The notes beneath the pieces were generated by a model. The model saw nothing but the letters and a program-made list of their open reading frames with translations. It searched no databases and was not told where the DNA came from. From Patescibacteria group bacterium (GTDB lineage: Bacteria; Patescibacteriota; Patescibacteriia; Patescibacteriales; UBA12465): DNA of 64,000 bases. Positions 30,821 to 49,827 of the stretch are shown piece after piece. The stretch spans positions 851-64,850 of the forward strand of contig JBAZNJ010000002.1 in NCBI GenBank assembly GCA_041649315.1. The letters run 5' to 3'. Position 1 is the stretch's first letter. Every line of letters begins with the position of its first letter. The position numbers and the translations under genes were made by a program.

Positions 30821-31828
30821 ATGTTTATCAAAAGAATCGGGATTGATCTCGGAACAACTTATACTTTGATTTATCTGCCGCGACGCGGTATCGTTATTAA
30901 CGAGCCGAGTGTGGTTGCGGTAGCGCTTGAGGACCGAAAAATTTTAGCGGTCGGGAACGAAGCTAAGGATATGGTTGGCCGGACGCCGGATACGATTATC
31001 GCGGTTCGCCCCTTGAAAGACGGAGTTATCGCTGACTATCGGGCGACCGAAGCGATGATTCGTTATTTTATCAATAAAACTTTAGGCGGTGTTCGTCTTT
31101 TTCGGCCGGAAGTAATGGTCGCGGTGCCGGCCGGTATTTCTTCGACCGAACGCCGGGCCGTAATTGAAGCAACTATCGCCGCCGGCGCCAAGGCGGCTTA
31201 TATAATTAAAGAACCAGTAGCTGCGGCTATCGGGGCGGATATTCCGATTGGTTCAGCGACCGGCCATATGGTTATTGATATCGGCGGCGGCACGGCGGAA
31301 ATGGCGGTGATTTCTTTGGGTGGTGTCGTCGCCTCAACTTCAGTTAGGGTTGGCGGCAATAAATTTGATGCGGCGATTTTAGAATATATTCGGAAGAAGT
31401 ATAATTTAGCCATCGGCGAACGGACAGCCGAAGAAATCAAGATTAATATCGGCTCGGCTTTATATATGGAAGATAAATTATACTTGGAAATCCGCGGTCG
31501 GGATATTGTTACCGGTTTGCCGCGGAGTATTACGGTCAGCTCTGATGACGTGACTGAGGCAATTCAAAATGAATTAGAAGAAATAATCGCGGCGGCGAAA
31601 AAAGTTTTACATAAGACGCCGCCTGAATTATCAGCTGATATCATGGATAAAGGAATTGTTTTGACCGGCGGTAGTGCACTTTTGCGCAATATTGATCAGT
31701 TAATCGCCCGGACGACCGGAGTGGCCGCTTATGTGGCTGACGACGCGATGCTTTGCGTTGCCAAGGGGACTGGCATTGCCCTTGATAATTTAGATTCATA
31801 CAAACGCAGTATTTTAGCGACTAAATAA
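30821..31828 (+). CDS. mreB: MreB paralogue (copy 2)
   Basis: 335 aa, colinear with copy 1 and roughly half identical by eye. IGIDLGTTYTLIY...NEPSVVA...DIGGGTAEMAVISLGGVV...LTGGSALLRNID. Confidence 0.9.
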   Translation: MFIKRIGIDLGTTYTLIYLPRRGIVINEPSVVAVALEDRKILAVGNEAKDMVGRTPDTIIAVRPLKDGVIADYRATEAMIRYFINKTLGGVRLFRPEVMVAVPAGISSTERRAVIEATIAAGAKAAYIIKEPVAAAIGADIPIGSATGHMVIDIGGGTAEMAVISLGGVVASTSVRVGGNKFDAAILEYIRKKYNLAIGERTAEEIKINIGSALYMEDKLYLEIRGRDIVTGLPRSITVSSDDVTEAIQNELEEIIAAAKKVLHKTPPELSADIMDKGIVLTGGSALLRNIDQLIARTTGVAAYVADDAMLCVAKGTGIALDNLDSYKRSILATK

Positions 31829-33136: not shown

Positions 33137-33191
33137 GTGTTAGGGCCGTCGTTTTGTAAAAATTATAAATATGGTATTATTAAGATGTTAT

Positions 33192-35225
33192 ATGAGAAAA
33201 CTAATAGCATCTTTTTTTATTGTTTTATGTTTAGCGGTCGGCGTAAATATCCGGTCGGCTTTGGCTAGTGTTACTCCTAATGACCCTTATTACGATCGCC
33301 AATGGTATTTGATGAAAATTCGGGCCGATAGTGCTTGGGATAAGGTTTCTTCCAGTCCAGATACGATTATCGCCGTGATTGATTCCGGAATCCAGATTGA
33401 TCATCCGGATTTACGGGATAATATTTGGAAAAATAAAGGGGAAATTCCTGATAACGGGAAGGATGATGATCGAAACGGTTTTATTGATGATACGAATGGT
33501 TGGGATTTTGTTGAGAATATTCCGGATCCAAGGCCGAAATTTTCTAATGGTTGGACTGAGGCTGGTGTGACACATGGCACGATGGTGGCCGGGATTATCG
33601 CTGCGCGCGGAAATAATAACGAGGGGATTGCCGGTCTTGCTTGGCAGGCAAAAATAATGCCGCTTAAGGTTTTAAATGATCGAGGCGAAGGAAAAATTAG
33701 TGATGTTGTCCGGGCGATTGATTATGCGACTAATAATGGCGCGGATATTATTAATTTAAGTTTTGTGTCTTTTGTTTATAGCGAGGCCTTAGAAGAAGCA
33801 ATCGCGCGGGCGCATCAAGCCGGAGTAATCGTCGTTGCCGCCGCCGGCAACGAGCAGTCGGTCGGTGAAGGTTATAATATCGATGAAACGCCGGTTTATC
33901 CGGTTTGTTATGACGGCTCTTTTGGCGAGAATATGGTTATCGGCGTGGCTGCGACCGACGCCTTGGATCAGAAAGCGGCTTTTTCTAGTTATGGAGCCAG
34001 ATGCGTAGATATCTCGGCGCCGGGGATCAGTTTTTTTAGCGCGGTGACGGCCGGTTCTGATGTGAAAAACCCAGGAAAGATTTATGACGGCTATTGGTCC
34101 GGAACTTCAATGGCCGCGCCCTTGGTTTCCGGCGCACTCGCTTTAATTCGAGCGGCTAATCCGGAACTTAGCCGCCGGGAAGTGGTGAGCATCCTTTTCG
34201 CCTCAACCGACAATATTTCCCGGCTTAATCCGGATTACCCCGGCTTGCTCGGCAACGGACGTTTAAATGTGGATCGGGCCGTAGAAATGGCTAAGGAAAT
34301 TTTGTATCAAAAGATTGGACGTTTAATCTTAGCGCCGGTAAGCGGCGATAAAGAAATTAAATTGACTGCGGCCAATGGCGATTTTATAGATAGTTTGAAT
34401 ATCAGCGACGGAAATAATTATAAGTTATCCGCTTATGATTTTAATGATGATGGTGAAGAAGAGTTGATTTTAGCCGCTAAGGCCGGCAATGAGCCGCGCG
34501 TTAAAATACTTAGCCAAGATGGAAAAATCTTAAAGGAATTTTTGGTCTTTGATAAATGGTTCCGCGGTGGCATTGAGGTTGTGGCGGCGGATTTAGATGA
34601 TGATGGTTCTCCGGAGATTATTGCGGTTCAAGTCAGTAAGGGGAATGGCCAAGTACGTATTTTTAATTCCGAAGGCAAATTAATTCGGCAATTTTATGCG
34701 GTTAATAGCCGTTGGCGCGGCGGCCTGAGCGTTGCGGCCGGCAATCTTGACGCTAAGGGCGAAAAAGAAATTATTATCGGCCTCGGTGCCGGAGCCGAGC
34801 CGCAAGTCCGGATATTCAGTCCGAAAGGGAATTTAATCGGTGTTTTTTTGGCCTATGAAAAAAGTTTCCGCGGCGGAGTCAAGGTAGTATCCGCTAATCT
34901 GGACGGCCGTAATAGCCGTGGCCAGGATGAAATAATCGTCGCGCCGGGGCCGGGCCGCGAACCTTTGGTTAAGATTTTTGATAATCGGGCGGCGCTTAAG
35001 AAACAGTTTTTAGTTTATAATCGGAATTGGCAAAACGGCTTTGATTTAACGGCCGGCGATCTTAATAATGACGGCTCGGCGGAGATAATCGTGGGCGCCC
35101 GGCCGGGTGCCGCACCACATGTCCGGGTTTTCAGCGGGAGCGGTCTACTTAGGGACTCTTTCTATACTTGGGAGGAGGGCTTTAAGGGCGGAGTAAATGT
35201 TGCTATAATAAGAATGAGCAACTAA
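33192..35225 (+). CDS. Secreted subtilisin-like serine protease (S8) fused to C-terminal FG-GAP/VCBS-like repeats
   Basis: Signal peptide MRKLIASFFIVLCLAVGVNIRSALA. Catalytic triad contexts VIDSGI, HGTMVAGIIA and GTSMAAPLVSG. Then five repeats of the form (D/N)LD.DG..EII.......P.V(R/K)IF. Confidence 0.85.
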   Translation: MRKLIASFFIVLCLAVGVNIRSALASVTPNDPYYDRQWYLMKIRADSAWDKVSSSPDTIIAVIDSGIQIDHPDLRDNIWKNKGEIPDNGKDDDRNGFIDDTNGWDFVENIPDPRPKFSNGWTEAGVTHGTMVAGIIAARGNNNEGIAGLAWQAKIMPLKVLNDRGEGKISDVVRAIDYATNNGADIINLSFVSFVYSEALEEAIARAHQAGVIVVAAAGNEQSVGEGYNIDETPVYPVCYDGSFGENMVIGVAATDALDQKAAFSSYGARCVDISAPGISFFSAVTAGSDVKNPGKIYDGYWSGTSMAAPLVSGALALIRAANPELSRREVVSILFASTDNISRLNPDYPGLLGNGRLNVDRAVEMAKEILYQKIGRLILAPVSGDKEIKLTAANGDFIDSLNISDGNNYKLSAYDFNDDGEEELILAAKAGNEPRVKILSQDGKILKEFLVFDKWFRGGIEVVAADLDDDGSPEIIAVQVSKGNGQVRIFNSEGKLIRQFYAVNSRWRGGLSVAAGNLDAKGEKEIIIGLGAGAEPQVRIFSPKGNLIGVFLAYEKSFRGGVKVVSANLDGRNSRGQDEIIVAPGPGREPLVKIFDNRAALKKQFLVYNRNWQNGFDLTAGDLNNDGSAEIIVGARPGAAPHVRVFSGSGLLRDSFYTWEEGFKGGVNVAIIRMSN

Positions 35226-36443: not shown

Positions 36444-36911
36444 TTACAATTGTTTTATTACAGCGTTTAAGATCGCTTTAGTTGAGTCCGAAATATTAAG
36501 TGTGTTAAATGCTTTGTCGGACGGCGCTACAAGATGATATGCTTGATGCTCAGACGCTTCGAGTTTAATTTCTCCAGGCTCAGTTTCAATCAAGAAATTG
36601 AATTGTCTAGTTTTTTTACCGGAGCCGGATGTGTAATCAAATGAGCCGAGGTAGGTAAGGATTAGTCCAATAACTAATCCTGTTTCTTCTTTAACTTCCC
36701 GCGCTAAAGCCGTGAGCAAATCTTCATTTTCATCTACGGCGCCACTCGGAAGTTCAACGAGTCCGCCCATAAAATCAGAGAGTACTCGTTCAAGAAGTAA
36801 AAATTTATTATCTCTATTAATGACTGCGCCAACGACTAACTTCTGGATGCCGTCCTTTTTGGAGACGGCGACCAGTTGTTTGATTATTTTTTGATCGATT
36901 TTTAATTCCAT
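36444..36911 (-). CDS. NUDIX hydrolase
   Basis: Complete Nudix box GAVDENEDLLTALAREVKEETGL (G-x5-E-x7-REUxEExGU). Confidence 0.85.
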   Translation of the reverse strand: MELKIDQKIIKQLVAVSKKDGIQKLVVGAVINRDNKFLLLERVLSDFMGGLVELPSGAVDENEDLLTALAREVKEETGLVIGLILTYLGSFDYTSGSGKKTRQFNFLIETEPGEIKLEASEHQAYHLVAPSDKAFNTLNISDSTKAILNAVIKQL

Positions 36912-36926
36912 AGCTTCTATATTGTA

Positions 36927-38177
36927 TTATTTACTCGTTTTAGCGTCAAGTAGAAGTTCGGGATTGTTTTGTACTATTGATGCTACTTTAACGATTCCCT
37001 TAATGTATAGATTGACCATTTGTTCTTCGTCCGGAAATGACCATACTGGCAGTTTAAGTGCATTTTTATAGAATTGCTCTGCTACTGGAAAAGATTGTTG
37101 GATTCGCCTCTGGACACCTTGGTATAGTCTAGGTAGAGCCTTTCCTGGTTCAGTAAATATTGGTAAGCGGTGCAATGTTCCTGTCGATTTAGGCCGATCA
37201 AATTCAATGAGCCCTTCGGCGAGTATTGCATTAGTAAATAAATCAATATTTACACCATTTGAATGAGATTCATCAAATTGCATCACATAAGCATACCAGC
37301 CATGTTGTTTGTTAAGCGTTTGAGGTGTATTTAAGAAGGAATACTGATTAAAGGCGGATGTCATCTTTTCGGCATAGCATTGTCTTTGTTTGAGCCATTC
37401 ATTAAGATGAGAAAATTGTTCTTGTGCTATAGCAACCGCTAGCGGATGAGAGCGAAATTTTAATCCAAATCCGGTCGTGCTGAATGCCGAGAGTGAATAA
37501 TCAGACGGTATTTCTTGTTTACATCGCTTATTGTAGTGCCCTTGAAGCATAGCGCGATAATATATTTCTTTATCGTCGGTTAACATAATACCGCCTTCAC
37601 CGCCAGTAATGGCCGCGTCGCCAAACGTGCCGACGAGCTTATTATTATCACGCGCGCCATGAGCGTGTGAACAGTCTTCAAGCAGCCGCAGATTATGCTT
37701 TTTGCAAATGGAAACAATTTCTCTCATATTGCATGGGATTCCCCACATATGAGTTATCATAATTGCTTTAGTGCGCGGTGTGATGATTTTTTTAATTTCT
37801 GCGGGGTTTATATTGCCGTCCGCTTGGCAGTCGCAGAATATCGGTGTTGCTCCGGTGTGCATTAATGGGCTTACGGTCGCGAAAAAGGTATAGACAGGAC
37901 AAATTACTTCATCGCCTGGCCCGAGCGCGAGCCCCTCATACATTGAATAGATAGCATTGGTCCCGGAATTGGACAGAAGTCCGTATCGGCGTTTATGGTA
38001 ATCGGCGAAAGTGTCTTCGAATTCTTTAATTATCCCCGATCGATTATAAATTGAGATAGTAGCATGGAGTTGCCGGATAACTGCCATTTCTACGGATTTT
38101 GTAATGCGCGGCCACGAGAGATGTGGCCCCTTCGTTTTAATGGTTTTATTACCACCAAAGATTGCGAGCTTATTCAT
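36927..38177 (-). CDS. DegT/DnrJ/EryC1/StrS-family sugar aminotransferase homologue lacking the usual PLP-lysine segment
   Basis: Family blocks are present (…SGTNAIYSMYEGL…DEVICPVYTFFAT…ITHMWGIPCNM…LLEDCSHAHGA…GGEGGIMLT…). Between GTFGDAA and ITGGEGG, however, the expected FSF...K segment is absent. A strong AGGAGG SD lies at 38185-38190. Confidence 0.8.
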   Translation of the reverse strand: MNKLAIFGGNKTIKTKGPHLSWPRITKSVEMAVIRQLHATISIYNRSGIIKEFEDTFADYHKRRYGLLSNSGTNAIYSMYEGLALGPGDEVICPVYTFFATVSPLMHTGATPIFCDCQADGNINPAEIKKIITPRTKAIMITHMWGIPCNMREIVSICKKHNLRLLEDCSHAHGARDNNKLVGTFGDAAITGGEGGIMLTDDKEIYYRAMLQGHYNKRCKQEIPSDYSLSAFSTTGFGLKFRSHPLAVAIAQEQFSHLNEWLKQRQCYAEKMTSAFNQYSFLNTPQTLNKQHGWYAYVMQFDESHSNGVNIDLFTNAILAEGLIEFDRPKSTGTLHRLPIFTEPGKALPRLYQGVQRRIQQSFPVAEQFYKNALKLPVWSFPDEEQMVNLYIKGIVKVASIVQNNPELLLDAKTSK

Positions 38178-38191
38178 AGTTTATCCTCCTT

Positions 38192-39226
38192 TTAATGGTT
38201 TTTTTGGATTATTTTTAATATATCATTTGGATCACACGATGTTTTAGAGTGGTCCGATTTGTATGCGGCTTCAATAACCGCAACGTGTTGTAAATGTTCA
38301 GTGTAGTCCGGTAGAGCTCCGGGAACGAATTGGTGTATTCTTTCGGCGAAATAATCAAGTTGTTCTACTGCCGCTGAAGGCCAACCGCCCTGTCGTTCCA
38401 GTTTTTCAATTTCGTTGCCATTGATGTCGAGTCGGCGTATTAATCCTCGTGATACTTCCACGACACCGTTAGTACCAAAGACGCGTATGCGTTCCTGTTT
38501 TTCCGGATATACTCGGGAAATCACAAAATTTCCGACAAGCTTTTCGTCGTACTGAAATTTTAAATGATAATCAAACAGGAGGTGCGCAGTGTCTTCCACG
38601 TCATATTTTTGCCCCGGACGATTACCTCGTGTCATGCGTGCGGTAATTGATGTTGGCATACCAAAGTACCAGATTAGCAAATCGACGAAGTGGTAGCCCA
38701 TGTCCACCAGTGCGCCACCACCCGAAAGATTTTTTGAAGCTCGCCAGCCCTCATTAAGCGTAGCTATATTCATTGTGTATGCGCCTTCAATGGAGTAAAT
38801 TTTTCCAATATACTTTTTAAGTTGATGAAATGTTTGATATATGGGGTTAAACCGACGTTGGACGGTAACGCCCATATATACCGATCCATTGCGCAGAATT
38901 TTCATTAATTGTCGAGCTTCGACGATATTTGTTGCTAGCGGTTTTTCCTTAATAATGTGTTTTCCCGCCTTAACTAGCGCGCTGATAATATCCAAATATG
39001 CATGATGCGGAATGGAGATCATCGCAACTTGAAAGTCTTGTTCTTTAATTAGTTTATCGAGCTCAATATAGCTTGGTACTTTGTATTGAGCGCTGATTTC
39101 TTTGGCTTTTTTTTGATCAGTATCACAGACACCAATAAGTTCGAAGTTTTCACTTCGCATAATGGCCGGGAGGTGATCGTCTTTCGATTGTTTCCCTAGG
39201 CCGATTACTGCTATTCGCAATTTCAT
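38192..39226 (-). CDS. Gfo/Idh/MocA-family NAD(P)-dependent oxidoreductase
   Basis: MKLRIAVIGLGKQSKDDHLPA (Rossmann), EKPLA motif (IIKEKPLATN), and a C-terminal alpha/beta dimerisation domain. Confidence 0.85.
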   Translation of the reverse strand: MKLRIAVIGLGKQSKDDHLPAIMRSENFELIGVCDTDQKKAKEISAQYKVPSYIELDKLIKEQDFQVAMISIPHHAYLDIISALVKAGKHIIKEKPLATNIVEARQLMKILRNGSVYMGVTVQRRFNPIYQTFHQLKKYIGKIYSIEGAYTMNIATLNEGWRASKNLSGGGALVDMGYHFVDLLIWYFGMPTSITARMTRGNRPGQKYDVEDTAHLLFDYHLKFQYDEKLVGNFVISRVYPEKQERIRVFGTNGVVEVSRGLIRRLDINGNEIEKLERQGGWPSAAVEQLDYFAERIHQFVPGALPDYTEHLQHVAVIEAAYKSDHSKTSCDPNDILKIIQKNH

Positions 39227-39341: not shown

Positions 39342-40553
39342 TTAAACCTCTCCTATCATCTCCATAATCTTCCGTTGTAAATCTGCTTCGTCGCCCGGCT
39401 TGAACAATTTATCATTCGTTCCAATTATTTCCGGAATGCCGCCGAGATTGGCGGCAATGACGCGCAAGCCGGCGGCGCGAGCGCCATAGATTACGGTTGG
39501 GGAATTTTCATAGCATAAGGACGGAACGATCAGGCAATCATTAGCCGCTTTTATTTTTTCTGCTTCTTCATAGCTAAGAGGCCCGATAAAGCTTATCCGC
39601 TTATCTCCGGTTGCCGCTTCTTTTGCCGCGGCCATGCTTGCTCCGCCGCCCCTGATCGCAATCGTGAGTTTAATGTCCGGATTAGATATTTTTTTAAAAG
39701 CTTTGATTAACAAGAAAATGCCTTTTTGTTTTTCTATTTGTCCGATGAATAGGAATTTTTTAATTTTTTGCTTAGGTTTAATCAACGCTGATTCCGCCGG
39801 TCCGGCTTGGTCTGATGCGGTTTGCGTCACTGGCTGGCCGGATCTTGATGCCGTTTGTGTTGCTGGCTGATTGGGATCCGGCGCTGTTTGCATTGTCGGT
39901 TGGTCGAGATTTGACGATGTTTGCGCCTCCGGCCAAGCAAAAGGTTGGATTTCTTTTTCCGAGTTTTTAAAAAATCCATATTGATTATGTAAATCCAAAA
40001 GCCAGCGGGAGGGCGAGATAATTTTTTCCGGCGGAGCGAATAGAGCGCGGGTCAAAAGCCGGTATATTTTTGCGCTTAGTCCGCTTATCTTTTTTTCTTG
40101 GCCCCAAAGCATCAGGCCGGAAGGATGAAGCAGTTGGATATCATGGAGAAAATGTTCATGTTTGATTTTTAAATTTCTAATGGCCGCGGGCACCATAAAA
40201 CCCAGCCCCATTAAATTATGAGTAACGACTAAATCCGGTTTTTCTTTTTTCAATATTTTTTTAATTTGCGCGTATTTACGGAAAGAGAAAATATTGCCTA
40301 AGTGCCAGAATAAACGGGGCAGGGCAGATAACTCGGCTAAATTATAAAATTTAGAGTTTAAATAATAGATTTTTAGGCCATTGTTTTCGTCAGTCGGTTT
40401 TTCGCCGTCAGTTGCCGTTTTTCGCGGTTTTGTGGTAATTAAAAAAACTTCATGGCCGGCTTTTTTAAAGTCGGCCGCCATCATTTCAACAACGGTTTCC
40501 GCGCCGCCGCGGCTATAAATTCCGTATAAGTTGTGGATCAAGGCAACTTTCAT
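39342..40553 (-). CDS. Glycosyltransferase family 4 with an inserted Q/T/P-rich repeat linker
   Basis: MKVALIHNLYGIYSRGGAE...(N-terminal GT-B half)...repeat insert...CYENSPTVIYGARAAGLRVIAANLGGIPE (C-terminal half). Confidence 0.75.
   Translation of the reverse strand: MKVALIHNLYGIYSRGGAETVVEMMAADFKKAGHEVFLITTKPRKTATDGEKPTDENNGLKIYYLNSKFYNLAELSALPRLFWHLGNIFSFRKYAQIKKILKKEKPDLVVTHNLMGLGFMVPAAIRNLKIKHEHFLHDIQLLHPSGLMLWGQEKKISGLSAKIYRLLTRALFAPPEKIISPSRWLLDLHNQYGFFKNSEKEIQPFAWPEAQTSSNLDQPTMQTAPDPNQPATQTASRSGQPVTQTASDQAGPAESALIKPKQKIKKFLFIGQIEKQKGIFLLIKAFKKISNPDIKLTIAIRGGGASMAAAKEAATGDKRISFIGPLSYEEAEKIKAANDCLIVPSLCYENSPTVIYGARAAGLRVIAANLGGIPEIIGTNDKLFKPGDEADLQRKIMEMIGEV
39811..39938 (-). repeat. 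Imperfect ~33-nt tandem repeat (about 3.8 units) encoding an 11-aa repeat QP(T/A/V)(M/T)QTA(P/S)...
   Basis: Units at 39811-39842, 39843-39876, 39877-39909 and a partial 39910-39938. They translate (-) to DQPTMQTAPDPNQPATQTASRSGQPVTQTASDQAG. Confidence 0.8.
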
Positions 40554-40654: not shown

Positions 40655-41782
40655 TTAAATAAATAATCTTTTTAGATTTTCCGCCATCTTCCGTTCATCA
40701 TATTTTTCCTCCGCTAAGCTTCGCGCCGCCAGCGCCATAGTTCGTCGTAGCGCTTCATTATCTAAGATAAATTTTATTTTTTCTCTCAGATTATCCGCGT
40801 CGCCGGGCGCGGCTAATAGTCCTTCTTTTTGGTCGCTAAAGACGCGGCGAACACCCGGTAGATTCGAAGCGATAACCGGCGCGCCGCAAGCCAGCGCTTC
40901 AATCAAAACCAAGCCGAAGGCCTCATTGCTGTTAATTGAGGGCAAGATTAAAAGATCGGTATTTTGGTAGTAGCGTATTTTTTCCGCGTCATCCAGGCGT
41001 CCGACAAATTTTACTTTATCCGCTATTTTTAATTCCCGCGCCAATGTTTCATAATCGTAGCGCAATTCACCTTCGCCGGCGATAACAAGTCGCCAGTTTT
41101 TTTCGGTCAGGCCGCTTAAGGCCTGGAGCAAAACATCAACGCCTTTAAAATAATGCGCCCGGTCAAGGCCGCCGACGAACAGAATATCTAATTGCCTTTT
41201 TTTAATGAAGCGGTCGTTGATATAATGGATTAGTTTTTGCGCTCGGGCGATTGTGCTGTTAGCCGCCTGGCGATTGATCATTTTCGTTTGAAATTTTTCA
41301 ATATCAAGGCCGAACGGAATTTCTTGGAATTTATCCGGCCGCGCCCGATAATAATCTTTTATCTGGCTGTGAGTTATATAATCAAAACTGGCGCTGACTA
41401 TCAGATCAGCTTGCTTGAAAAGGGAAAAGCGGATAAGGCGGGCCGGCCAGCTTAAGAAACGGAAGATTAAACTGGAATGGCGGACGTCCATATGGTAATG
41501 GATGATCAGTTTTGGTTTTTTGAAAAATAATTTAAAAAACCAGACGACTTCTGCGCCGCCAAAAAAAGGATAATGAAGATAAATATAATCAAATTTGCGC
41601 AGTTTCCAAAGAAGCTGGGGCAAAAAAGCGCCATGGCCGTATTTTAGCCATGGCTTTAGATTATGAGGCGTAAAATTAACAATTTCGGCTGACGGCTTTA
41701 AAAGACGGTCGATCTGAGCGGCGACCGTCGCGATGCCGCCGGCATAAGGCGGGAAAGTGCAGACGACTTGGGCGATTTTCAT
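40655..41782 (-). CDS. Glycosyltransferase family 4
   Basis: MKIAQVVCTFPPYAGGIA...LFVGGLDRAHYFKG...PSINSNEAFGLVLIEALACGAPVIASNLPG. Confidence 0.8.
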   Translation of the reverse strand: MKIAQVVCTFPPYAGGIATVAAQIDRLLKPSAEIVNFTPHNLKPWLKYGHGAFLPQLLWKLRKFDYIYLHYPFFGGAEVVWFFKLFFKKPKLIIHYHMDVRHSSLIFRFLSWPARLIRFSLFKQADLIVSASFDYITHSQIKDYYRARPDKFQEIPFGLDIEKFQTKMINRQAANSTIARAQKLIHYINDRFIKKRQLDILFVGGLDRAHYFKGVDVLLQALSGLTEKNWRLVIAGEGELRYDYETLARELKIADKVKFVGRLDDAEKIRYYQNTDLLILPSINSNEAFGLVLIEALACGAPVIASNLPGVRRVFSDQKEGLLAAPGDADNLREKIKFILDNEALRRTMALAARSLAEEKYDERKMAENLKRLFI

Positions 41783-41803: not shown

Positions 41804-42238
41804 TTAAATATTTTTATTATCAGTATTTGAGGATTTTGGGTTATTTGATAGTTTTTGATTATTTAAAGATTCCGGCGTGGATTTTTTCATTAAATCATTC
41901 GTGGCGAGCGGGTTGTCCAGGGCAATTTCTCGGGCGACATCCGTTATATTCCGATCAAGTTTCGCAACCGTTAGGCGCAAGCTAAAGACTACATAAAATA
42001 AAATTAGAACCGCCAGATAAACGAGAAAATTTATACCGCCGCCGGAAAAGCCGAGCCAAGCGACCAAGCGATCGATTTCTTTAATTAAGATTACGGCGCC
42101 GCCGGCTAAAATCCAAAAAGCGAGCCATAAAGAAAATTCATTTCGGCTGATTTCCTGTTTTTTCTTCTGTTTAAACAAGCGAAAAACAAAAAGAGCAATC
42201 AGGATTAAGGCTATTATTTGTTGAAGCATAATGGTCAT
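41804..42238 (-). CDS. Small membrane protein, DUF2304-like (typically partnered with a GT2)
   Basis: Four hydrophobic segments followed by ...LRLTVAKLDRNITDVAREIAL. Sits immediately downstream of a GT2, as I recall for DUF2304 proteins. The start at 42238 (ataatATG context) is preferred over 42268. Confidence 0.5.
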   Translation of the reverse strand: MTIMLQQIIALILIALFVFRLFKQKKKQEISRNEFSLWLAFWILAGGAVILIKEIDRLVAWLGFSGGGINFLVYLAVLILFYVVFSLRLTVAKLDRNITDVAREIALDNPLATNDLMKKSTPESLNNQKLSNNPKSSNTDNKNI

Positions 42239-42339
42239 ATTATGGTTGTTATTTTTGATTATTAGCATTGTCGTTCGGGCGGCAATGCTCCTGAGCGCCT
42301 GTAATTTTGTAGAGTAAAATTTATTGCTAGCCGGACGCC

Positions 42340-42999
42340 TTACTTAATTATTTTATGGATTAAGAGGTCGCGGATGATTTTGAAGCCACCGGATAACTTT
42401 TGGCCGGGGCGGTGATAAATAACCGTGACCGGCACTTCCGCCATCCTTAAGCCCGCCTGCCGCGCCTTGATCTGGATTTCGCTGGCATGGGCCATTTCCC
42501 GGTTAACGATTTTAATCGTCTCGGCGGCGCGCCGGTTCAAGGCCCGAAAACCGTTTTGCGGGTCGCTTAGTTTTAATCCGAGGGCGCGGGTAAATATTTT
42601 TGCCAGCGGCATGATTAGATATTTTTTTACCGGCGGGAAATTTGTTTTTTTTCCCAAAAAACGGGAACCGAAAACGATGTCGGCCCGGTCGTTGATAATC
42701 GGCTCGGCCATATCTTTTATTTCTTCCGCCAAAAATTGATCATCAGCATCAAAATGAATTATTATTTCCGCGCTATGGCGCAAAGCGTAATCATTGCCGG
42801 TTTGCAGGGCGGCGCCTTGGCCGCGATTAATCGGATGGCGCAAGACAATCGCGCCAGCCGTTTCGGCTAAAGCCGCGGTTTCATCGCGCGAGCCGTCATC
42901 AACGACAATTACTTCGTCAACTTGCGCCCGAACAGTTTTAACTACTTTAGCGATATTAGCCGCTTCGTTCCAGGCCGGGATGACACAACTTATTTTCAT
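42340..42999 (-). CDS. Glycosyltransferase family 2 (polyprenol-phosphate glycosyltransferase-like)
   Basis: MKISCVIPAWNEAANI...VIVVDDGSRDET...HFDADDQ (DxD)...FGSRF. Confidence 0.85.
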   Translation of the reverse strand: MKISCVIPAWNEAANIAKVVKTVRAQVDEVIVVDDGSRDETAALAETAGAIVLRHPINRGQGAALQTGNDYALRHSAEIIIHFDADDQFLAEEIKDMAEPIINDRADIVFGSRFLGKKTNFPPVKKYLIMPLAKIFTRALGLKLSDPQNGFRALNRRAAETIKIVNREMAHASEIQIKARQAGLRMAEVPVTVIYHRPGQKLSGGFKIIRDLLIHKIIK

Positions 43000-43084: not shown

Positions 43085-44107
43085 TTAATTTTTTGGATTT
43101 TTTAGAATCCCGGCTTTTATTTTGTGCTTCCGGTCGCTCTCTAAAGGTCGGAAACCCTCGGTACGGGCGATTTTTTCTAATTCTTTCCAGAAATTTTTCT
43201 TGGGCCGGGATTCGCTGGCGAGGATGAATTGCTTGAGTTTTGGCGTCATCTTTAGGATTTCGAATAAGCCAATCTGCCGGCGTTCCTTGGCACTGCTTGA
43301 TTTCGGTTGTTGCCAATCGGCTAGATGTTGGATAAGAATCATCTTAAGGCAGTCCAATTTTAATTTCAAGGGCGGATCGCTGCGCAATATAGCGGAAAGG
43401 ATTTCCCAGGGATTTTCCGCCGTCATCGTTGCGATAACTAGGCGTCCGGTGGCGGCGGCGCGCAAAACCCGTGCTAAATCTTTCGTGTCCTTTAGATCAT
43501 CAATTGCGATAATATCCGAATCATGGCTTAAGATTTTTTCCCAATTAGCTTCGGTCGGGGGAAGATAACTGATGCCGGTAATTTCCTGTTCCGGATTTGC
43601 GCTTAAGCAATAAAGATTTTTTTTCGCGTCATTTAAGGCGTCAAGCAGGGAATAAAGCAGAGCGCTCTTTCCATTTCTGGCCGGCGCGCCGATAATGATT
43701 AATCCAGAGCGGGCGCGGCCGGCGCTTTGAAGAGTTTTAAGGTCTTTCATCTGTAGGCCGAGCTGGCTTAAACGCCAGGGTTTGACGGGTTGGTCGATAA
43801 TGTTTATAATTATCTTTTCATTATCGCCGTCTGGCAGAACGGCCAAGCGGAAAGTCAAACGGGAATCTTTAGAGCTTATTTTGCAATAACGCTCGGCAGT
43901 TAATTCCCCGGGAGCGATTTCTAAGACCTTGCGCAAGTCCGCGAACAGGTCTTCTTCCAGTTTTTTCGGCAAATGGAAGCTTTTTTGGTCGCCGTTTTTA
44001 AAATCATAATTCAAACAGACCCCATCCAAGCGACGGACAACAGTTAAACGCTTAGCCTCTTCCCAGGCGGCGTAATTGAAGATATTGTTGGTTATTTTCA
44101 AGCCCAT
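43085..44107 (-). CDS. Divergent PilB/GspE/PilT-family (type II/IV secretion) ATPase homologue with degenerate catalytic boxes
   Basis: 340 aa, colinear by hand alignment with the PilB ATPase core. RLTFRLAVLPDGDNEKIIINIID (cf. FRVSTLPT.FGEKVVLRILD). GLIIIGAPARNGKSALLYSLL (Walker A kept as A-x4-GKS). LSANPEQE (cf. EDPVE Asp box). DSDIIAIDDLKD (cf. DPDVIMVGEIRD). TGRLVIATMTA (cf. TGHLVLSTLHT His box). Confidence 0.65.
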   Translation of the reverse strand: MGLKITNNIFNYAAWEEAKRLTVVRRLDGVCLNYDFKNGDQKSFHLPKKLEEDLFADLRKVLEIAPGELTAERYCKISSKDSRLTFRLAVLPDGDNEKIIINIIDQPVKPWRLSQLGLQMKDLKTLQSAGRARSGLIIIGAPARNGKSALLYSLLDALNDAKKNLYCLSANPEQEITGISYLPPTEANWEKILSHDSDIIAIDDLKDTKDLARVLRAAATGRLVIATMTAENPWEILSAILRSDPPLKLKLDCLKMILIQHLADWQQPKSSSAKERRQIGLFEILKMTPKLKQFILASESRPKKNFWKELEKIARTEGFRPLESDRKHKIKAGILKNPKN

Positions 44108-44116: not shown

Positions 44117-44125
44117 ATTATAGCA
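44117..44125 (-). promoter_or_regulatory. Extended -10 box (TGCTATAAT on the minus strand) 9 nt upstream of the PilB-like ATG
   Basis: The minus strand reads tgctataat aaaaacatt ATG. This predicts a transcription start 2-3 nt before the start codon. Confidence 0.4.
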
Positions 44126-44136
44126 TAGTTTTGTAT

Positions 44137-44156
44137 TGTGATAAAATGTGATAAAA
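44137..44156. repeat. Perfect tandem decamer tgtgataaaa x2 in the divergent promoter region
   Basis: 44137-44146 and 44147-44156 are identical. They lie between the minus-strand glycan cluster and the plus-strand mraY cluster. Confidence 0.8.
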
Positions 44157-44196: not shown

Positions 44197-44610
44197 ATGG
44201 CTTATTTTAATTTTTACGCTCGTTTTTATGCGAAACGCCGGGCTATTGCCGAGGCGATCGCGACTTTTTGGCGTTTTCGGCCGGTCCGTCTTTATTTTTT
44301 CATATTTTGGCCGCTCCATATCTTGACTTGGCTTGAGGCATTTTTCATTAGGAAAAATTTAAGCGGAAATTTTTTAGTTTTACATTATAATGTAGATTTT
44401 GGCGTGGACCTAGTAAGCGGTCCGAATCGTATTTTTGTTTATCCGCTTTACGGCCTGGCGGTTTTTTTAATAAATTTTTCTTTGGGCGTTTTTTTGACCA
44501 GGCGGCCGGATTGGCGCCTATTCGCCCATTTTCTTTTAGCCGGGCTCGTTTTATTTTCAGCCCTCTTGGTCTTAGCTTTAATGTTTATTTATTTGATTAA
44601 TTTCAGCTAA
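44197..44610 (+). CDS. Hypothetical membrane protein (about 4 TM segments) preceding mraY by 3 nt
   Basis: 137-aa hydrophobic ORF, probably co-transcribed with mraY. No recognisable family. Confidence 0.4.
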   Translation: MAYFNFYARFYAKRRAIAEAIATFWRFRPVRLYFFIFWPLHILTWLEAFFIRKNLSGNFLVLHYNVDFGVDLVSGPNRIFVYPLYGLAVFLINFSLGVFLTRRPDWRLFAHFLLAGLVLFSALLVLALMFIYLINFS

Positions 44611-44613
44611 TCT

Positions 44614-45660
44614 ATGGAATTCCAGGTTATTAAAATTTTATTCATCTCGACTTTAGCTTTTGTTTTTGCGATTTCTGTCGCCCCGCTTTTAACTAATTTT
44701 TTATATAAGTATAAATTAGGAAAAAAAATCCGTTCAAACGGCGCGACGCCGATTTTTACCAAGCTCCATGCACATAAGGCCGGCACGCCGACTATGGGTG
44801 GTATTTTGGTTTGGGGGACTTTATTGATTATTATTTTTCTTTTTTATTTTTTGGGCCGGATTTGGCCGGACGGAATTTTAAGCCATTTGAATTTTTTATC
44901 GCGGCCGGAAACTTTATTGCCGCTCGGCGCCTTGATCGCTTCGGCGTTCATCGGACTTTTTGATGACTGGCTTGATGTGCGGGGGAAGGGTGTTCTCGGC
45001 GGCGGCGGCTTGAAATTACGCCATCGTCTTTTGATTTATACTTTGATTGCTTTAATTGGCGCGCTTTGGTTTTATTATAAATTGGATTGGACGGTTTTTC
45101 ATATTCCGTTTTTAGGAAATTTTGAAATTGGTATTTGGTATATTCCGGTTTTTATCTTTATTATTGCCGCGGCTTCTTTTTCCGTTAATGAAACCGATGG
45201 CCTGGACGGCTTGGCCGGCGGGACATTATTGATTGCTTTTGCTTCTTACGCGGTAATTTCTTTTGCGCTTGGCCGCTATGAACTCGCGACTTTTTGCGGC
45301 GTGATTATCGGGGCTTTGCTGGCTTTTTTATGGTTTAATATTCCGCCGGCTCGTTTTTATATGGGGGACACCGGCTCAATGAGTTTGGGCGTAACTTTAG
45401 GAATCATCGCCATGTTAACCAATACTTCCTTATTATTGCCGTTTATCGGTTTGATTTTTTTAGTTGAGTCCTTGTCGGTGATAATCCAGGCCTTATCAAA
45501 GAAATTTCGGGGCAAGAAAATAATTCTGTCTTCACCGGTTCATCATCATTTTCAAGCCATTGGCTGGCCCGAGGCAAAAGTAGTAATGCGTTTTTGGGTA
45601 ATCGCCGCGGTCGGCGCCGCCAGCGGCTTGATTATCTTCCTGCTTGATCAGAAATTTTAG
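44614..45660 (+). CDS. mraY: Phospho-N-acetylmuramoyl-pentapeptide transferase
   Basis: ...HAHKAGTPTMGG...FDDWLDV...VNETDGLDGLAGG...GDTGSMSLG...SSPVHHHFQ. Confidence 0.95.
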   Translation: MEFQVIKILFISTLAFVFAISVAPLLTNFLYKYKLGKKIRSNGATPIFTKLHAHKAGTPTMGGILVWGTLLIIIFLFYFLGRIWPDGILSHLNFLSRPETLLPLGALIASAFIGLFDDWLDVRGKGVLGGGGLKLRHRLLIYTLIALIGALWFYYKLDWTVFHIPFLGNFEIGIWYIPVFIFIIAAASFSVNETDGLDGLAGGTLLIAFASYAVISFALGRYELATFCGVIIGALLAFLWFNIPPARFYMGDTGSMSLGVTLGIIAMLTNTSLLLPFIGLIFLVESLSVIIQALSKKFRGKKIILSSPVHHHFQAIGWPEAKVVMRFWVIAAVGAASGLIIFLLDQKF

Positions 45661-46935: not shown

Positions 46936-48159
46936 ATGATTGATAATAATCAGAAAAATAATCAGATAAGAAGAATAATGTTAGCCGGCGGCGGGACCGG
47001 CGGTTCGGTTTTGCCGCTTTTAGCCGTGGCCGAGGAATTATTGAAAACCGAGGTCGTGGCCGGAGAAAGGGCACTTAAGACCGGTTCGGCGACTGATGCT
47101 TTACCTGGACAAAAGCGATTAGAAATAGTTTTTGTCGGCACGACTAGAGGCCCGGAAAAAGAGATGGTCGCGGATTTTAATAGCCGGATTGGAAACATGA
47201 AATTTATTCCGCTCTCCGGCGGGAAATGGCGCCGTTATTTTTCTTGGCAGAATTTTTTTGATGTTTTTAAGATCATCATTGCTTTTTTTAAATCGTTTAG
47301 GATTTTGCGCCGAGAGCGGCCGGAAATCATAATTAGCGCCGGCAGTTTTATCGCCGTGCCGCTTGTTTGGGCGGCGGCGCTTAAAAAGATTCCGATCTTA
47401 GTCCATCAACAGGATATCCGTCCCGGTTTGGCCAATAAATTGATGGCGCCGTTCGCCCGGGTAATCACGGTCGCGTTTGAAAAATCTTTAGCCGATTATG
47501 GACCGCGTGCGGTTTTAACCGGCAATCCGGTGGCGAGCGCGGTTGAACAGCAAGGGAGGGAACAAGGCGGCCAAATCCGTGATTGGTACGGGCTTAGTCC
47601 GGATCAACCTTTGATTTTAGTAATCGGCGGCTCAACGGGCGCGAGTGCGCTTAATAAGTTAGTCGCGGCGGCCGCTCCTGAATTATCGCGTTTTTGCCAG
47701 ATTGTCCATATCACCGGAAAAGGGAAGACGATAGAAAATGATGCGGGCGGGGAGGGACAGGTTGAAAATGTTGGCACGGAGAATAATGCCTACCATGTTT
47801 TTGAATTTTTAAATTATGATAATTTATTGGTTTTGCTGGCGAGCGCGGATTTAGTCGTTTCTCGTTGCGGTTTAGGCGCTTTAACCGAATTATCCGCTTT
47901 AGAAAAGCCGGCGATTTTAATTCCGATGCCGCGAACTCATCAGGAAGATAACGCCGCGGTTTTCGCGGCGGCGGACGCGGCCGTAGTTTTAAATCAAGAC
48001 GAACTTACGCCGGAGAAATTAACGACGGCCATAAAAAAAATCCTGGAAGATCCGGGATTAAGAAGTGCGTTAAGCCGGAATATCGGTAAAGTTATCAAGC
48101 GCGGCGCGGCCGCGAGTATTGCCGGAATAGTTTGGGAGATTGTGGGGGATAAAATTTAA
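46936..48159 (+). CDS. murG: UDP-GlcNAc:lipid I N-acetylglucosaminyltransferase MurG
   Basis: IMLAGGGTGGSVLPLLAVAEEL...HQQD...GGSTGA...VSRCGLGALTELSALEKPAILIP. Carries two lineage-specific inserts. Confidence 0.9.
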   Translation: MIDNNQKNNQIRRIMLAGGGTGGSVLPLLAVAEELLKTEVVAGERALKTGSATDALPGQKRLEIVFVGTTRGPEKEMVADFNSRIGNMKFIPLSGGKWRRYFSWQNFFDVFKIIIAFFKSFRILRRERPEIIISAGSFIAVPLVWAAALKKIPILVHQQDIRPGLANKLMAPFARVITVAFEKSLADYGPRAVLTGNPVASAVEQQGREQGGQIRDWYGLSPDQPLILVIGGSTGASALNKLVAAAAPELSRFCQIVHITGKGKTIENDAGGEGQVENVGTENNAYHVFEFLNYDNLLVLLASADLVVSRCGLGALTELSALEKPAILIPMPRTHQEDNAAVFAAADAAVVLNQDELTPEKLTTAIKKILEDPGLRSALSRNIGKVIKRGAAASIAGIVWEIVGDKI

Positions 48160-48171
48160 TAAAATAAAAAA

Positions 48172-48191
48172 GCCCTCAAGATTTAGAGGGC
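48172..48191 (-). terminator. Hairpin terminator for the small minus-strand gene (also marks the murG 3' end)
   Basis: gccctc (48172-48177) pairs with gagggc (48186-48191). The A-run at 48166-48171 becomes a U-tract on the minus strand. Confidence 0.5.
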
Positions 48192-48212
48192 CGGGGCATA
48201 ACGATTATTTTA

Positions 48213-48410
48213 TTATTTTTTTAAATTATCTATTCGGTCAAGGACGGAATAGAAACTTAAGCAAAGGATAAAAGCTATAATCATTCCTATTAAACAGATT
48301 AGATGATTTGTGTGTTCCAGTGTATTCGGTACTATTTTCCCCCCAATAAGGCTAGTTATTAGTATTAGAATAAAACATAAACCAGCAAAGATTAAAAAAA
48401 CTGTTTTCAT
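48213..48410 (-). CDS. Small hypothetical membrane protein (65 aa, 2 TM)
   Basis: MKTVFLIFAGLCFILILITSLIGG.... The longer 48213..48677 ORF overlaps the murC start and is rejected. AT-rich. Confidence 0.3.
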   Translation of the reverse strand: MKTVFLIFAGLCFILILITSLIGGKIVPNTLEHTNHLICLIGMIIAFILCLSFYSVLDRIDNLKK

Positions 48411-48474
48411 GATTTTATTTATTAGGTTAAACAATTGTAAAAGAATTAAATTATTATAGCATATTTTAAATAAA

Positions 48475-49827
48475 ATGTCAATAGATAAAAAACCTAAGAA
48501 TAACCCGGTAAAAACCATATACCTAATCGGCCTTAAAGGCGTGGGCATGACTATGTTGGCGCAGTTTTTAGCGGCGCAGGGCCATAAGGTGAGCGGTTCG
48601 GACATTAAGGAGAGTTTTATGACCGATAAGGTTTTGCGCCGGGCAAAGATTAAGGTTTTTTCTCCCTTTGCCGCCAAAAATATTCCGGCTCAAGCCAATA
48701 CGATAATTTATTCAACCGCTTATAACCCGAAAACTAATCCGGAACTAGCCTTTATAAAAAATAATCCGGCGCGATTTAAAAATGTCCGTCTCTTGTCTTA
48801 TCCGGAGGCGCTCGGTGAAATTTTTAATCAATATTATGGTGTCGCCGTTATTGGCAGTCATGGCAAAACCACGATTACCGCTTGGCTCGGTTATATTTTA
48901 GAAAAGGCCGGCCTAAACCCGAACGTCTTAGTCGGCTCTTACGTGCCACAATTTAAGGGCAGTAGTTTAATCGGAAAGTCGAAATATTTTGTCGCCGAAG
49001 TTGATGAATATCAGAATAAATTAAAATATTTTAATCCCCGCGGTGTCGTGCTTAATAATATTGATTACGATCATCCGGACTTTTTTAAAGACAAAAAAGC
49101 TTATGATCAGGTCTTTGTGGATTTTATTAAAAAAATTTCTCGGGATGGCTGGCTGGTGGTTAATAAAGATGACCCCAGAGCCGCGGCGGTCGCGAAATTC
49201 TGTCGTGGCCGGGTGATTTTTTATTCCGCTAAAGACTTTAAAAAATCCGGTGTGCGTTCCGGTTTGCCGGGCCAACATAATCTCTATAACGCCCAAGCGG
49301 TGTTTACCGCGGCGCGCCAGTTGCGCGTGCCGGTCGTAAAAATTAAAAAATATCTGCCGGAGTTTAAGGGAACGGATCGCCGTTTGCAGATCATGGGCCG
49401 TTATCATGGCGCGACGATTATTGACGATTACGCGCATCATCCGACGGAAATCAAGGCCAGCTTAAACGCGATGCGTGAAAAATATCCGCGGCAAAAAATA
49501 ATTACGGTTTTTCATCCCCATACTTTCTCCCGCACCAAAGCGCTATTTAAAGATTTTGCGCGCAGTTTCGCCGGCACTGACGAATTAATAATTTTAGACA
49601 TTTATGGCTCGGCGCGCGAAAAACAGGGCGGGGTGTCTAGCCGGCAGTTGGCGGACGCGATTGTAAAATTCAATCGCACTAATAAGATGTCGCAAGAAGT
49701 TAAAACTATTGCGACCATTCCGGCTGCGGCCGCGTACCTGCGCCGCCGTTTGAAAGCCGGAGAAGTTTTATTACTCATGGGCGCCGGCGATGTATTCCGG
49801 GTTGGGGAGAGATTATTGAAGGTTTAG
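48475..49827 (+). CDS. murC: UDP-N-acetylmuramate--L-alanine ligase
   Basis: IYLIGLKGVGMTMLAQFLAAQGHKVSGSD...AVIGSHGKTTITAW...DDYAHHPTEI. Confidence 0.9.
   Translation: MSIDKKPKNNPVKTIYLIGLKGVGMTMLAQFLAAQGHKVSGSDIKESFMTDKVLRRAKIKVFSPFAAKNIPAQANTIIYSTAYNPKTNPELAFIKNNPARFKNVRLLSYPEALGEIFNQYYGVAVIGSHGKTTITAWLGYILEKAGLNPNVLVGSYVPQFKGSSLIGKSKYFVAEVDEYQNKLKYFNPRGVVLNNIDYDHPDFFKDKKAYDQVFVDFIKKISRDGWLVVNKDDPRAAAVAKFCRGRVIFYSAKDFKKSGVRSGLPGQHNLYNAQAVFTAARQLRVPVVKIKKYLPEFKGTDRRLQIMGRYHGATIIDDYAHHPTEIKASLNAMREKYPRQKIITVFHPHTFSRTKALFKDFARSFAGTDELIILDIYGSAREKQGGVSSRQLADAIVKFNRTNKMSQEVKTIATIPAAAAYLRRRLKAGEVLLLMGAGDVFRVGERLLKV

Follow-up and report, generated by a model that had tools for sequence, protein, structure and literature searches.

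We analysed a 64,000-nucleotide stretch of DNA from a member of the Patescibacteria (contig JBAZNJ010000002.1, positions 851-64,850; this whole stretch is called the window in the following), in which the minus-strand gene at positions 43085-44107 encodes a protein of 340 amino acids (aa) related to the motor ATPases PilB and GspE. This PilB-like protein belongs to a family in which the catalytic boxes of the PilB/GspE enzymes are degenerate throughout, and its gene is the first of an operon that continues with glycosyltransferase genes. We propose, holding the matter to be about evenly balanced, that it is a PilB/GspE-derived pseudo-ATPase and that purifying selection keeps it as a subunit without catalytic function in a cell-envelope glycolipid pathway. 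Its sequence and structural model carry the marks of a pseudoenzyme: the fold is kept, the catalytic residues are lost lineage-wide and the gene is under purifying selection.

Fold of the PilB-like protein

The PilB-like protein matched the Pfam family T2SSE (PF00437) with 55.6 bits (gathering score 24.9, E 4.6e-15), where the alignment spanned positions 88-361 of the 370 profile positions. In a phmmer search of the PDB, PilB and GspE ranked first with E values of about 1e-12. The equivalog profiles of NCBIfam all remained far under their cut-offs, with 84 vs 617 bits for GspE, 67 vs 676 bits for PilB, 55 vs 300 bits for ComGA and 45 vs 319 bits for PilT. An AlphaFold2 model, calculated from an input alignment of 28 homologues, reached a predicted local distance difference test score (pLDDT) of 86.7 and a predicted template modelling score (pTM) of 0.78. 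Using Foldseek the model superposed over both domains on the motor cores of PilB, PilF and EpsE with template modelling (TM) scores of 0.77-0.80. PilB (5tsh_D) was matched with a TM score of 0.79 (E 2.7e-27), and EpsE with a TM score of 0.77. The predicted structure shows that the two-domain motor fold, consisting of N2D and the RecA-like CTD, is present.

The protein lacks the N-terminal N1D/MshEN domain as well as the tetracysteine zinc motif, which survives in the degenerate family only in one subclade (P0102/P0103 type). In public records the proteins of the family are named "ATPase, T2SS/T4P/T4SS family", "PilB-like" or "HofB". Fold and profile place the protein in the T2SSE superfamily. 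Since it lacks the catalytic features that define PilB/GspE enzymes, as detailed below, annotation as a pilus or secretion ATPase is inappropriate.

Degeneration of the catalytic boxes

Residue numbers were anchored on G. metallireducens PilB through the PDB phmmer alignment, and the register was checked in MAFFT and hmmalign. With this anchor the PilB residues T327, E357, E395, H413 and H420 fall where McCallum et al. (PMC5424180) put them. According to that study the Walker motifs, the catalytic Glu, the arginine fingers and the Asp-box Glu are completely conserved across PilT-like ATPases. In PilB, Glu357 coordinates Mg, Glu395 is catalytic and Arg271 and Arg286 are the arginine fingers; the pore-loop acids Asp398 and Glu400 are conserved and were proposed to engage PilC (PMC5424180). 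We took a residue census of 101 members of the degenerate family versus 17 canonical PilBs. The gene and its boxes are located as follows:

43085-44107, minus strand: PilB/GspE-fold protein, 340 aa, N2D and CTD only, catalytically degenerate, first gene of the operon (open reading frame (ORF), Pfam, AlphaFold2, Foldseek, about 100 orthologue clusters)
43664-43687, minus strand: P-loop APARNGKS (canonical GPTGSGKT), residues 141-148 (alignment)
43589-43603, minus strand: Asp-box remnant SANPE (vs EDP[VI]E), residues 169-173 (alignment)
43487-43522, minus strand: Walker B region, DSDIIAIDDLKD vs canonical DPDIIMVGEIRD, residues 196-207 (alignment)
43418-43450, minus strand: His-box region TGRLVIATMTA (vs TGHLVLSTLHT), residues 220-230 (alignment)

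Within Walker A the window protein retains Gly146-Lys147-Ser148, and the first and the middle Gly of the G-x-x-G-x-G-K-[ST] consensus are substituted. Gly146 is invariant in the family (101/101) as it is in canonical PilBs (17/17), and Ser148 is kept in most members. At the position of the P-loop Lys147, 78 of the 101 members have Lys and 23 have Arg, compared to Lys in 17/17 canonical PilBs, and outlying subclades of the degenerate lineage have Ala, Ile or Leu. In the Asp box Glu173 of the window protein aligns with the Mg-coordinating Glu357, a position at which Glu is found in 49/101 family members and in all 17 canonical PilBs. The Walker B and catalytic motif GEIRD is changed to DDLKD at residues 203-207. 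Here Gly394 (17/17 in canonical PilBs) is replaced by Asp203, and the position is acidic (Asp or Glu) in 99/101 members. The catalytic Glu395, likewise present in every canonical PilB (17/17), corresponds to Asp204 in the window protein; across the family the position holds Asp in 36 members, a gap in 30 and Glu in 11. The pore-loop acids Asp398 and Glu400, each found in 17/17 canonical PilBs, give way to scattered residues in the family.

The His box is altered as well. His413 (canonical 17/17) is replaced by Arg222, with Arg in 97/101 and His in 0/101 members, and His420 (canonical 17/17) is lost across the family, with Thr229 at its place in the window protein. Of the N2D arginines, Arg257 (16/17 in canonical PilBs) is Tyr in 93 family members, the arginine finger Arg271 (17/17) is Tyr in 61 and His in 18, and the arginine finger Arg286 (17/17) is Asn in 57 and Ser in 30. 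The window protein has Asn102 at the last of these positions and retains the equivalent of Arg271 as Arg87, which is a minority state (10/101). The family possesses near-invariant residues of its own, among them Trp189, Arg222 and Arg276, as well as its own motifs LPKKLE, KYCK and LPLKLKLD.

Judged from these alignments, essentially all residues that were reported to be completely conserved in PilT-like ATPases are lost family-wide. By the same residue counts, a remodelled, positively charged and conserved P-loop pocket is retained, formed by Gly146, Lys/Arg147, Ser148, the acidic residue 203 and Arg222.

The initial annotation of the gene had described a 340-aa product that is colinear with the secretion ATPase core and lacks both the tetracysteine motif and the long N-terminal domains, which the profile, PDB and Foldseek matches bear out. 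Its Walker A (APARNGKS), Walker B (DDLKD) and His-box (TGR..T) assignments agree with the phmmer, MAFFT and hmmalign register. For the Asp box the degeneration held, but the proposed motif ANPEQ was off by one residue, as it is SANPE that aligns with EDPVE; with Glu173 kept, the statement that all acidic residues are lost was wrong. In the register checked by MAFFT and hmmalign the boxes are degenerate, and orthologues share this state lineage-wide (101 members).

A monophyletic degenerate lineage

A search of 5.8 billion proteins yielded about 100 clusters of 330-345 aa with 35-61% identity. Where a taxonomic source was named it was Patescibacteria, including one Candidatus Falkowbacteria (Parcubacteria group). 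Below the family the scores dropped steeply to canonical PilBs of about 570 aa. In an exhaustive profile search of 1.84 billion representatives we obtained about 50 family representatives in two length classes, one of about 340 aa and one of about 290 aa that lacks the C-terminal helices. Further down came more distant short degenerate forms and after them canonical PilBs with letter-for-letter intact boxes; box status was bimodal among the representatives searched. A scan of genome contigs seeded with the close-homologue subset (loose back-translated patterns) returned one locus, in a Falkowbacteria metagenome-assembled genome.

In a neighbour-joining (NJ) tree with 100 bootstraps, calculated versus 75 canonical PilBs, all degenerate subclasses fell into one clade in 100/100 replicates. 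By this tree and these searches, the degenerate boxes define a monophyletic lineage found in Patescibacteria only and are not private decay. Proteins of about 1000 aa (P0154, P0157-P0161, P0163, P0164 and others) were considered as relatives and rejected, as they are tandem canonical PilB cores: in the three that were inspected Walker A, Asp box and His box are intact in both copies. They surfaced just under the family because their two domain scores add up.

Purifying selection on the PilB-like gene

Between the window strain and its sister strain the PilB-like gene differs in 11 synonymous and 1 non-synonymous codon. The resulting ratio of non-synonymous to synonymous differences per site (pN/pS) of about 0.03 is as tight as that of FtsW. 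For the 14 more diverged pairs with finite synonymous divergence (dS 1.0-1.95) the Nei-Gojobori (NG86) dN/dS ratio of the PilB-like gene had a median of 0.14 (range 0.06-0.31), compared to 0.07 for GT2, the glycosyltransferase gene next to it, in the same 14 pairs. Among relatives the PilB-like proteins are 39-49% identical (32-35% for the two most distant), compared to 72-81% for MraY and 93-96% for MreB. The PilB-like gene is constrained, less tightly than its enzyme neighbours, and is not decaying.

In the PilB-like protein only one residue, within the P-loop, sets the window strain apart from the sister strain (L001-L003): position 144 (codon 43676-43678) is Arg in the former and Gly in the latter.

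The glycosyltransferase operon

Downstream of the PilB-like gene the operon continues on the same strand with the following genes:

42340-42999, minus strand: GT2 glycosyltransferase, 219 aa, best match PpgS (Pfam; NCBIfam NF058614)
41804-42268, minus strand: DUF2304 small membrane protein, GacJ/Rv3632 family (Pfam PF10066, 59.6 bits)
40655-41782, minus strand: GT4 glycosyltransferase GT4a, conserved operon member (Pfam, NCBIfam, locus census)
39342-40553, minus strand: GT4 glycosyltransferase GT4b, conserved operon member (Pfam, NCBIfam, locus census)
36444-39226, minus strand: accessory insert, three genes at the operon end (Pfam, NCBIfam), comprising
38192-39226, minus strand: GFO/IDH/MocA oxidoreductase, best match UDP-GlcNAc 3-dehydrogenase (Pfam/NCBIfam)
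36927-38177, minus strand: DegT/PseC-like aminotransferase (Pfam/NCBIfam)
36444-36911, minus strand: NUDIX hydrolase (Pfam)

GT2 aligned end to end with the NCBIfam profile NF058614 for PpgS, a polyprenyl-phospho-GalNAc synthase, at 174.8 bits (cut-off 370, E 1.7e-51), from which we infer a putative polyprenyl-phosphate-N-acetylhexosamine (HexNAc) synthase. The DUF2304 proteins GacJ and Rv3632 are small membrane activators of GT2 enzymes of the GacI/PpgS type (bioRxiv 10.1101/180810). The DUF2304 protein of the window is extended at both its N- and C-terminus, with 154 aa vs about 108 aa in relatives. In GT4b of the window the two Rossmann halves are separated by an insert of about 45 aa that is rich in Pro, Thr and Gln and of low complexity (QPTMQTAPDPNQPATQTASRSGQPVTQTASDQ...).

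Gene tables anchored on the PilB-like protein gave the same layout in 11/11 relatives, down to 30% identity, and a further locus (L004) agreed by tblastn. One arm carries AlaRS (in most), MurB, an MsbA-like ABC transporter (in most), a Mur ligase, MurG, FtsW, MraY and a membrane ORF of about 137 aa, here called TM137. Divergent from it runs the arm with the T2SSE-like gene, GT2, DUF2304 and two GT4 genes, such that GT2 adjoins the PilB-like gene in each of the 11 tables. An epimerase/dehydratase of the short-chain dehydrogenase/reductase family and an S8 peptidase with FG-GAP repeats are convergent to this arm in nearly all tables. Farther out, where the flank extends without intervening genes, a third GT4, a second MreB and a response regulator follow. 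The oxidoreductase, aminotransferase and NUDIX genes of the window were found in 0/11 relatives with gene tables, and since these three extra genes are absent there the conserved unit is five genes. Plausibly, the insert is an acquired module for the tailoring of amino-sugar nucleotides. The eight-gene glycosylation cluster initially described is thereby correct as to the same-strand genes from 42999 to 36444 and to be shortened as to the conserved operon; the coupling to glycosyltransferases itself recurs in every relative with a gene table.

Occupancy of the slot upstream of GT2

We took a census of the slot 5' of GT2 in a metagenome scan. GT2 rather than the PilB-like gene was chosen as anchor to avoid circularity. 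The scan gave 80 loci (GT2 identity 53-98%), of which 71 were informative and fell into four states:

54/71 loci: degenerate short T2SSE-like gene
6/71 loci (L069, L073, L075, L078, L087, L092): canonical full-length PilB, 578-606 aa
7/71 loci (L048, L056, L059, L063, L072, L090, L093): empty slot, with TM137 about 50-70 bp from GT2
4/71 loci (L077, L081, L083, L086): different context, with GT2-DUF2304 on the same strand directly behind an MreB-GT4-S8-epimerase block and no dcw genes nearby

In the degenerate class the stop of the T2SSE-like gene and the start of GT2 overlap by 4 bp in 22 of the 54 loci, and the gap is at most 10 nt in 41. Whatever the slot state, nearly all loci with sufficient flank carry DUF2304 and a GT4a-like gene after GT2, and most have a second GT4. 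The canonical slot PilBs have every box intact, all three arginines and the MshEN N-terminal domain; the two that were scanned with Pfam scored 444-449 bits against T2SSE. In one of these loci (L069) the canonical PilB (6247-7983, plus strand) ends 17 nt upstream of GT2, and at the far end of the operon (11700-14008, minus strand) PilM (E 1e-43) is found together with weak PilN-like and PilO-like genes. In this lineage the glycosyltransferase operon is embedded in a type IV pilus assembly cluster, where it might serve the glycosylation of pilin or of a surface filament. In L092, the second canonical-PilB locus whose flank is long, RpoC is found at this place and not pilMNO. Slot states are clade-coherent on the GT2 tree, the rooting of which is unreliable.

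In one further locus (L068) a PilB-like ORF of 222 aa (61-726, plus strand) is followed by a 426-nt gap to GT2. This copy may be frameshifted or pseudogenised, or it may reflect an assembly error.

In the window itself no pilus genes were found by Pfam in any ORF of at least 120 aa, no prepilin motif in any of the six frames and no second T2SSE gene. This agrees with the initial annotation, which had listed no pilus genes nearby. What it had missed is the evolutionary link to pili, namely the canonical PilB in the same slot and, once, pilM/N/O next door, as well as the clean loss of the gene in another clade.

Proposed function and alternatives

Within the proposed pathway the pair of GT2 and DUF2304 would make a polyprenyl-phosphate-HexNAc donor for the extracytoplasmic glycosylation of a wall polymer or surface protein. 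The PilB-like protein would be able neither to hydrolyse ATP nor to drive a platform protein, would no longer work as a motor and would act as a scaffold or switch on the GT2/DUF2304/GT4 glycolipid pathway. Its remodelled P-loop pocket may bind a nucleotide or another phosphate ligand without turnover, and the ligand-bound protein may gate or organise the synthase complex at the membrane. An alternation of Lys and Arg in the P-loop is what is expected of a site that binds phosphate without turnover, as in Walker A mutants. The non-motor role would go back to one that was already exercised here by canonical PilB; in a sister clade the slot holds an intact PilB, in one locus next to pilMNO, and the situation would resemble that of Myxococcus PilB described below. 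The data fit the option of a pseudo-enzyme scaffold or nucleotide sensor that the initial annotation had named.

A number of observations weigh against this proposal. The case for a link of the PilB-like protein to the GT2, DUF2304 and GT4 proteins rests on gene order, and since the genomes are rather closely related (MreB 93-96% and MraY 77-81% identical) some of the synteny may be inertia. In a mirror-tree test against 11 neighbours (28 pairs) none stood out after control for phylogeny. GT2 distances barely correlated with PilB-like distances (r 0.17), which suggests a different rate history. The PilB-like gene is the fastest-evolving gene of the block, with a mean distance of 1.21 vs 0.26 for MraY. 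Its clean loss in one clade (7 loci) and its absence in 4 more loci, with the operon persisting, mean that it is dispensable in some backgrounds. Ligand binding is perhaps not universal, given the Ala, Ile or Leu that some subclades carry instead of the P-loop Lys.

Regarding the origin of the lineage, the slot-resident canonical PilBs occupy ranks 1-5 of the 75 canonical PilBs in mean BLOSUM distance to the degenerate clade. They were, however, sister to it in 0/100 NJ bootstraps, for which long-branch attraction is a likely cause, and a count of shared-derived residues between them and the degenerate clade gave no excess; both results count against the proposed descent. A slot-resident canonical PilB as direct ancestor, for which the distances speak but neither the NJ tree nor the shared-derived count, was not retained. 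With the sequence evidence being equivocal we claim positional correspondence only: since position, strand and operon all match, the degenerate lineage may have descended from a pilB at this locus or have been exchanged with one.

A more specific version of the proposal, which we regard as possible though doubtful, is that the motor turned into a dedicated "signalling-only PilB", whose pocket would sense a nucleotide, a nucleotide-sugar or polyprenyl-phosphate and would gate a synthase of the GacI/GacJ type beside the lipid II genes. It is unlikely, in our judgement, that the protein is instead a non-catalytic PilB paralogue still working in a pilus machine, where it would dock onto PilC or PilM or mix into PilB/PilT hexamers to regulate extension, with the operon serving the glycosylation of pilin or a surface filament. 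Such a role would fit the six loci in which canonical PilB heads the same operon, the pilM and weak pilN- and pilO-like genes that flank it in L069, the retained N2D-CTD core with its GEK motif and the conservation of type IV pili in Parcubacteria/Patescibacteria (PMC4508563, PMC12206443). It is at odds with the pore-loop acids, which were proposed to engage PilC (PMC5424180) and are not conserved in the family. Also, the 64-kb window has no pilus genes, all degenerate-type loci with long flanks have an epimerase, S8 peptidase, GT4 and MreB on the far side and not pilMNO, and even among the two canonical-PilB loci with enough flank pilMNO adjacency is seen in one. The N1D/MshEN domain, which mediates partner and cyclic di-GMP (c-di-GMP) binding, is absent as well.

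Two further alternatives concern the catalytic state and the fate of the gene. The protein could be an active but rewired NTPase, in which a classical Walker B (four hydrophobic residues followed by Asp/Glu at 203) replaces the GE motif and the Asp box and which energises, e.g., the extraction or flipping of lipid-linked sugars. The invariant Gly146, the Lys147 and Ser148 of most members, a Walker B strand that ends in an acidic residue in 99/101 and the near-invariant Arg222 close to the gamma-phosphate position would suit an active site, and the window protein even keeps the Mg ligand Glu173 and one arginine finger, Arg87. These last two are minority states, however, and the P-loop Lys is Arg in 23% of the members and Ala, Ile or Leu in outlying subclades. 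A conserved catalytic base after residue 203 is absent, most members have none of the three N2D arginines, His420 is missing, and nearly all of the residues that McCallum et al. found completely conserved are degenerate, such that we consider this alternative quite improbable. Finally, the initial annotation had allowed for a decaying paralogue, i.e. a gene without function of its own that is heading for loss. The fast evolution of the gene, the recurrent truncated forms of about 290 aa, the clean deletion in one clade and the seemingly frameshifted copy in L068 are what decay would produce. Against it stand the dN/dS of 0.14 and the strain-level pN/pS of 0.03, the family-invariant residues Trp189, Arg222 and Arg276, the monophyly of the family and the maintained translational coupling to GT2. 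The ORF is intact in 54 independent loci and conserved in length in dozens of lineages at 30-45% identity, which argues against neutral decay, since this would break the frame far sooner. The selection tests effectively refute decay, and we rate it as very improbable.

Other features of the window

The operon shares an 89-bp divergent intergenic region with the TM137-mraY arm:

44117-44144, minus strand: promoter-like site TTATCA-16-(TG)TATAAT (found by consensus scan only, no evidence of function)
44197-45660, plus strand: divergent arm, with the 137-aa membrane protein TM137 (44197-44610) and MraY (44614-45660) (ORFs, Pfam)

The promoter-like site lies within this region, has an extended -10 element (TGcTATAAT) and is the best minus-strand candidate in the scanned region. 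About 10 nt separate its end from the ATG of the PilB-like gene, in front of which no Shine-Dalgarno sequence is apparent. If the site is real, the operon mRNA may be nearly leaderless.

TM137 is rigidly 137 aa long, lies 3 nt upstream of mraY in the window and was found in 112 clusters, all from Patescibacteria, as well as in the loci L005-L015. No family of Pfam or NCBIfam matched it, and its AlphaFold2 model (pLDDT 87.8) had no fold match in the PDB. The motif LHYN-DFG, which lies on a beta-hairpin between helices, and the C-terminal YLINF are invariant in it. TM137 stays with MraY even in a divergent lineage without the PilB-like operon at the locus and is therefore to be counted with the MraY arm, where it seems to be a subunit associated with MraY that has so far not been described. 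We had considered TM137 as a membrane partner, flippase or platform of the PilB-like protein and rejected this on account of the same retention with MraY and the lack of a family or fold match.

Beyond MraY the arm of the window continues with FtsW, MurG, the Mur ligase, the MsbA-like ABC transporter and MurB. MurG and the Mur ligase (46936-49827, plus strand) are 92% and 88% identical to those of the sister strain L001, with a synonymous divergence of 0.15-0.32 (an ungapped, rough estimate), compared to 99-100% identity for the flanking MurB, ABC transporter, FtsW and MraY; the N-terminus of MurG is entirely different. This suggests a recombination patch or a hypervariable segment at MurG/Mur ligase within the dcw arm.

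Two MreB paralogues are present in the window (24641-27083 and 30821-31828, plus strand), one of them in an mreBCD set. The second stands beside a response regulator and a GT4 and is 93-96% identical in relatives whose other genes have diverged to 40-80%. The S8 subtilase with FG-GAP/beta-propeller repeats (684 aa, 33171-35225, plus strand), which lies between the epimerase and the third GT4 in nearly all relatives, may be a secreted envelope- or surface-processing protease of the same island. A ComEC competence channel gene (60328-61800, plus strand) is the only gene related to DNA uptake or pili in the window; it is 16 kb off and unlinked to the PilB-like gene. Pfam gave no matches to GtrA, Wzx or GT-C in the window, though such genes may sit elsewhere in the genome. 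PADLOC and PHROGs returned nothing relevant for the window, and Rfam and tRNA scans of it gave no match.

Comparison with known systems

PilB/GspE-family ATPases are treated as obligate motors. A monophyletic degenerate clade that is under selection and remains translationally coupled to the operon of a polyprenyl-phosphate-sugar synthase implies a second, hydrolysis-independent use of the fold. Patescibacteria are mostly uncultivated and attach to hosts via surface structures, such that a handle on the organisation of their envelope and surface glycans is useful. With an intact PilB, a dead PilB or an empty slot before the same operon, the locus provides a built-in comparative experiment. In a full-text literature search, which took in a 2024 review on the regulation of PilB and several papers on Patescibacteria pili but left most subscription journals outside its coverage, neither a natural catalytically degenerate PilB clade nor a PilB-like gene coupled to an operon of the GacI/GacJ type was found described. 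A described system that matches was not found, as the initial annotation had anticipated in stating that none could be assigned.

The GacI/GacJ system of S. pyogenes and the PpgS/Rv3632 system of M. tuberculosis share with the window a short GT2 of the PpgS-matching kind followed by a DUF2304 membrane protein. They differ in that the GT2 of the window is under the PpgS equivalog cut-off and that the window has no flippase or GT-C match. We know of no PilB-like gene reported with either system. ComGA, the ATPase of the competence pilus in Firmicutes, resembles the PilB-like protein in being short and free of long N-terminal domains, and its NCBIfam profile aligned over positions 25-263 of 267; the score of 55 bits is nevertheless far from the cut-off of 300. 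ComGA keeps the catalytic boxes and sits in the comG pilus operon.

A functional precedent for a "signalling-only" PilB is provided by Myxococcus xanthus, where PilB controls exopolysaccharide production in a manner that requires neither ATP hydrolysis nor pilus assembly (PMC5544727). A role of this kind is thus within the repertoire of the family. The Myxococcus protein is a fully active motor that moonlights via the Dif chemosensory pathway, whereas the PilB-like protein has lost the motor chemistry, is without the N-terminal region that binds c-di-GMP and is linked to a neighbouring glycosyltransferase operon. If the "signalling-only" version of our proposal is true, it would be the first natural case in which a moonlighting role of the Myxococcus type has become the only job of the protein.

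The closest relatives remain PilB and GspE themselves. Unlike these enzymes, the family is without the N1D/MshEN domain, the zinc motif, the catalytic Glu, the His-box histidines, the arginine fingers, most of the Asp box and the pore-loop acids, and the window protein has no pilus or secretion genes nearby. What it has in common with them is the N2D and CTD core, which superposes on PilB (5TSH) and EpsE (1P9R) with TM scores of 0.77-0.80 at colinear sequence, and a set of shared motifs, namely GEK, the LG linker, DxD before the Walker B strand, A-A-x-T-G, QRL and G-x-F-E. To this likeness in fold and sequence comes one in position, as in a related clade a canonical PilB occupies the same genomic slot.

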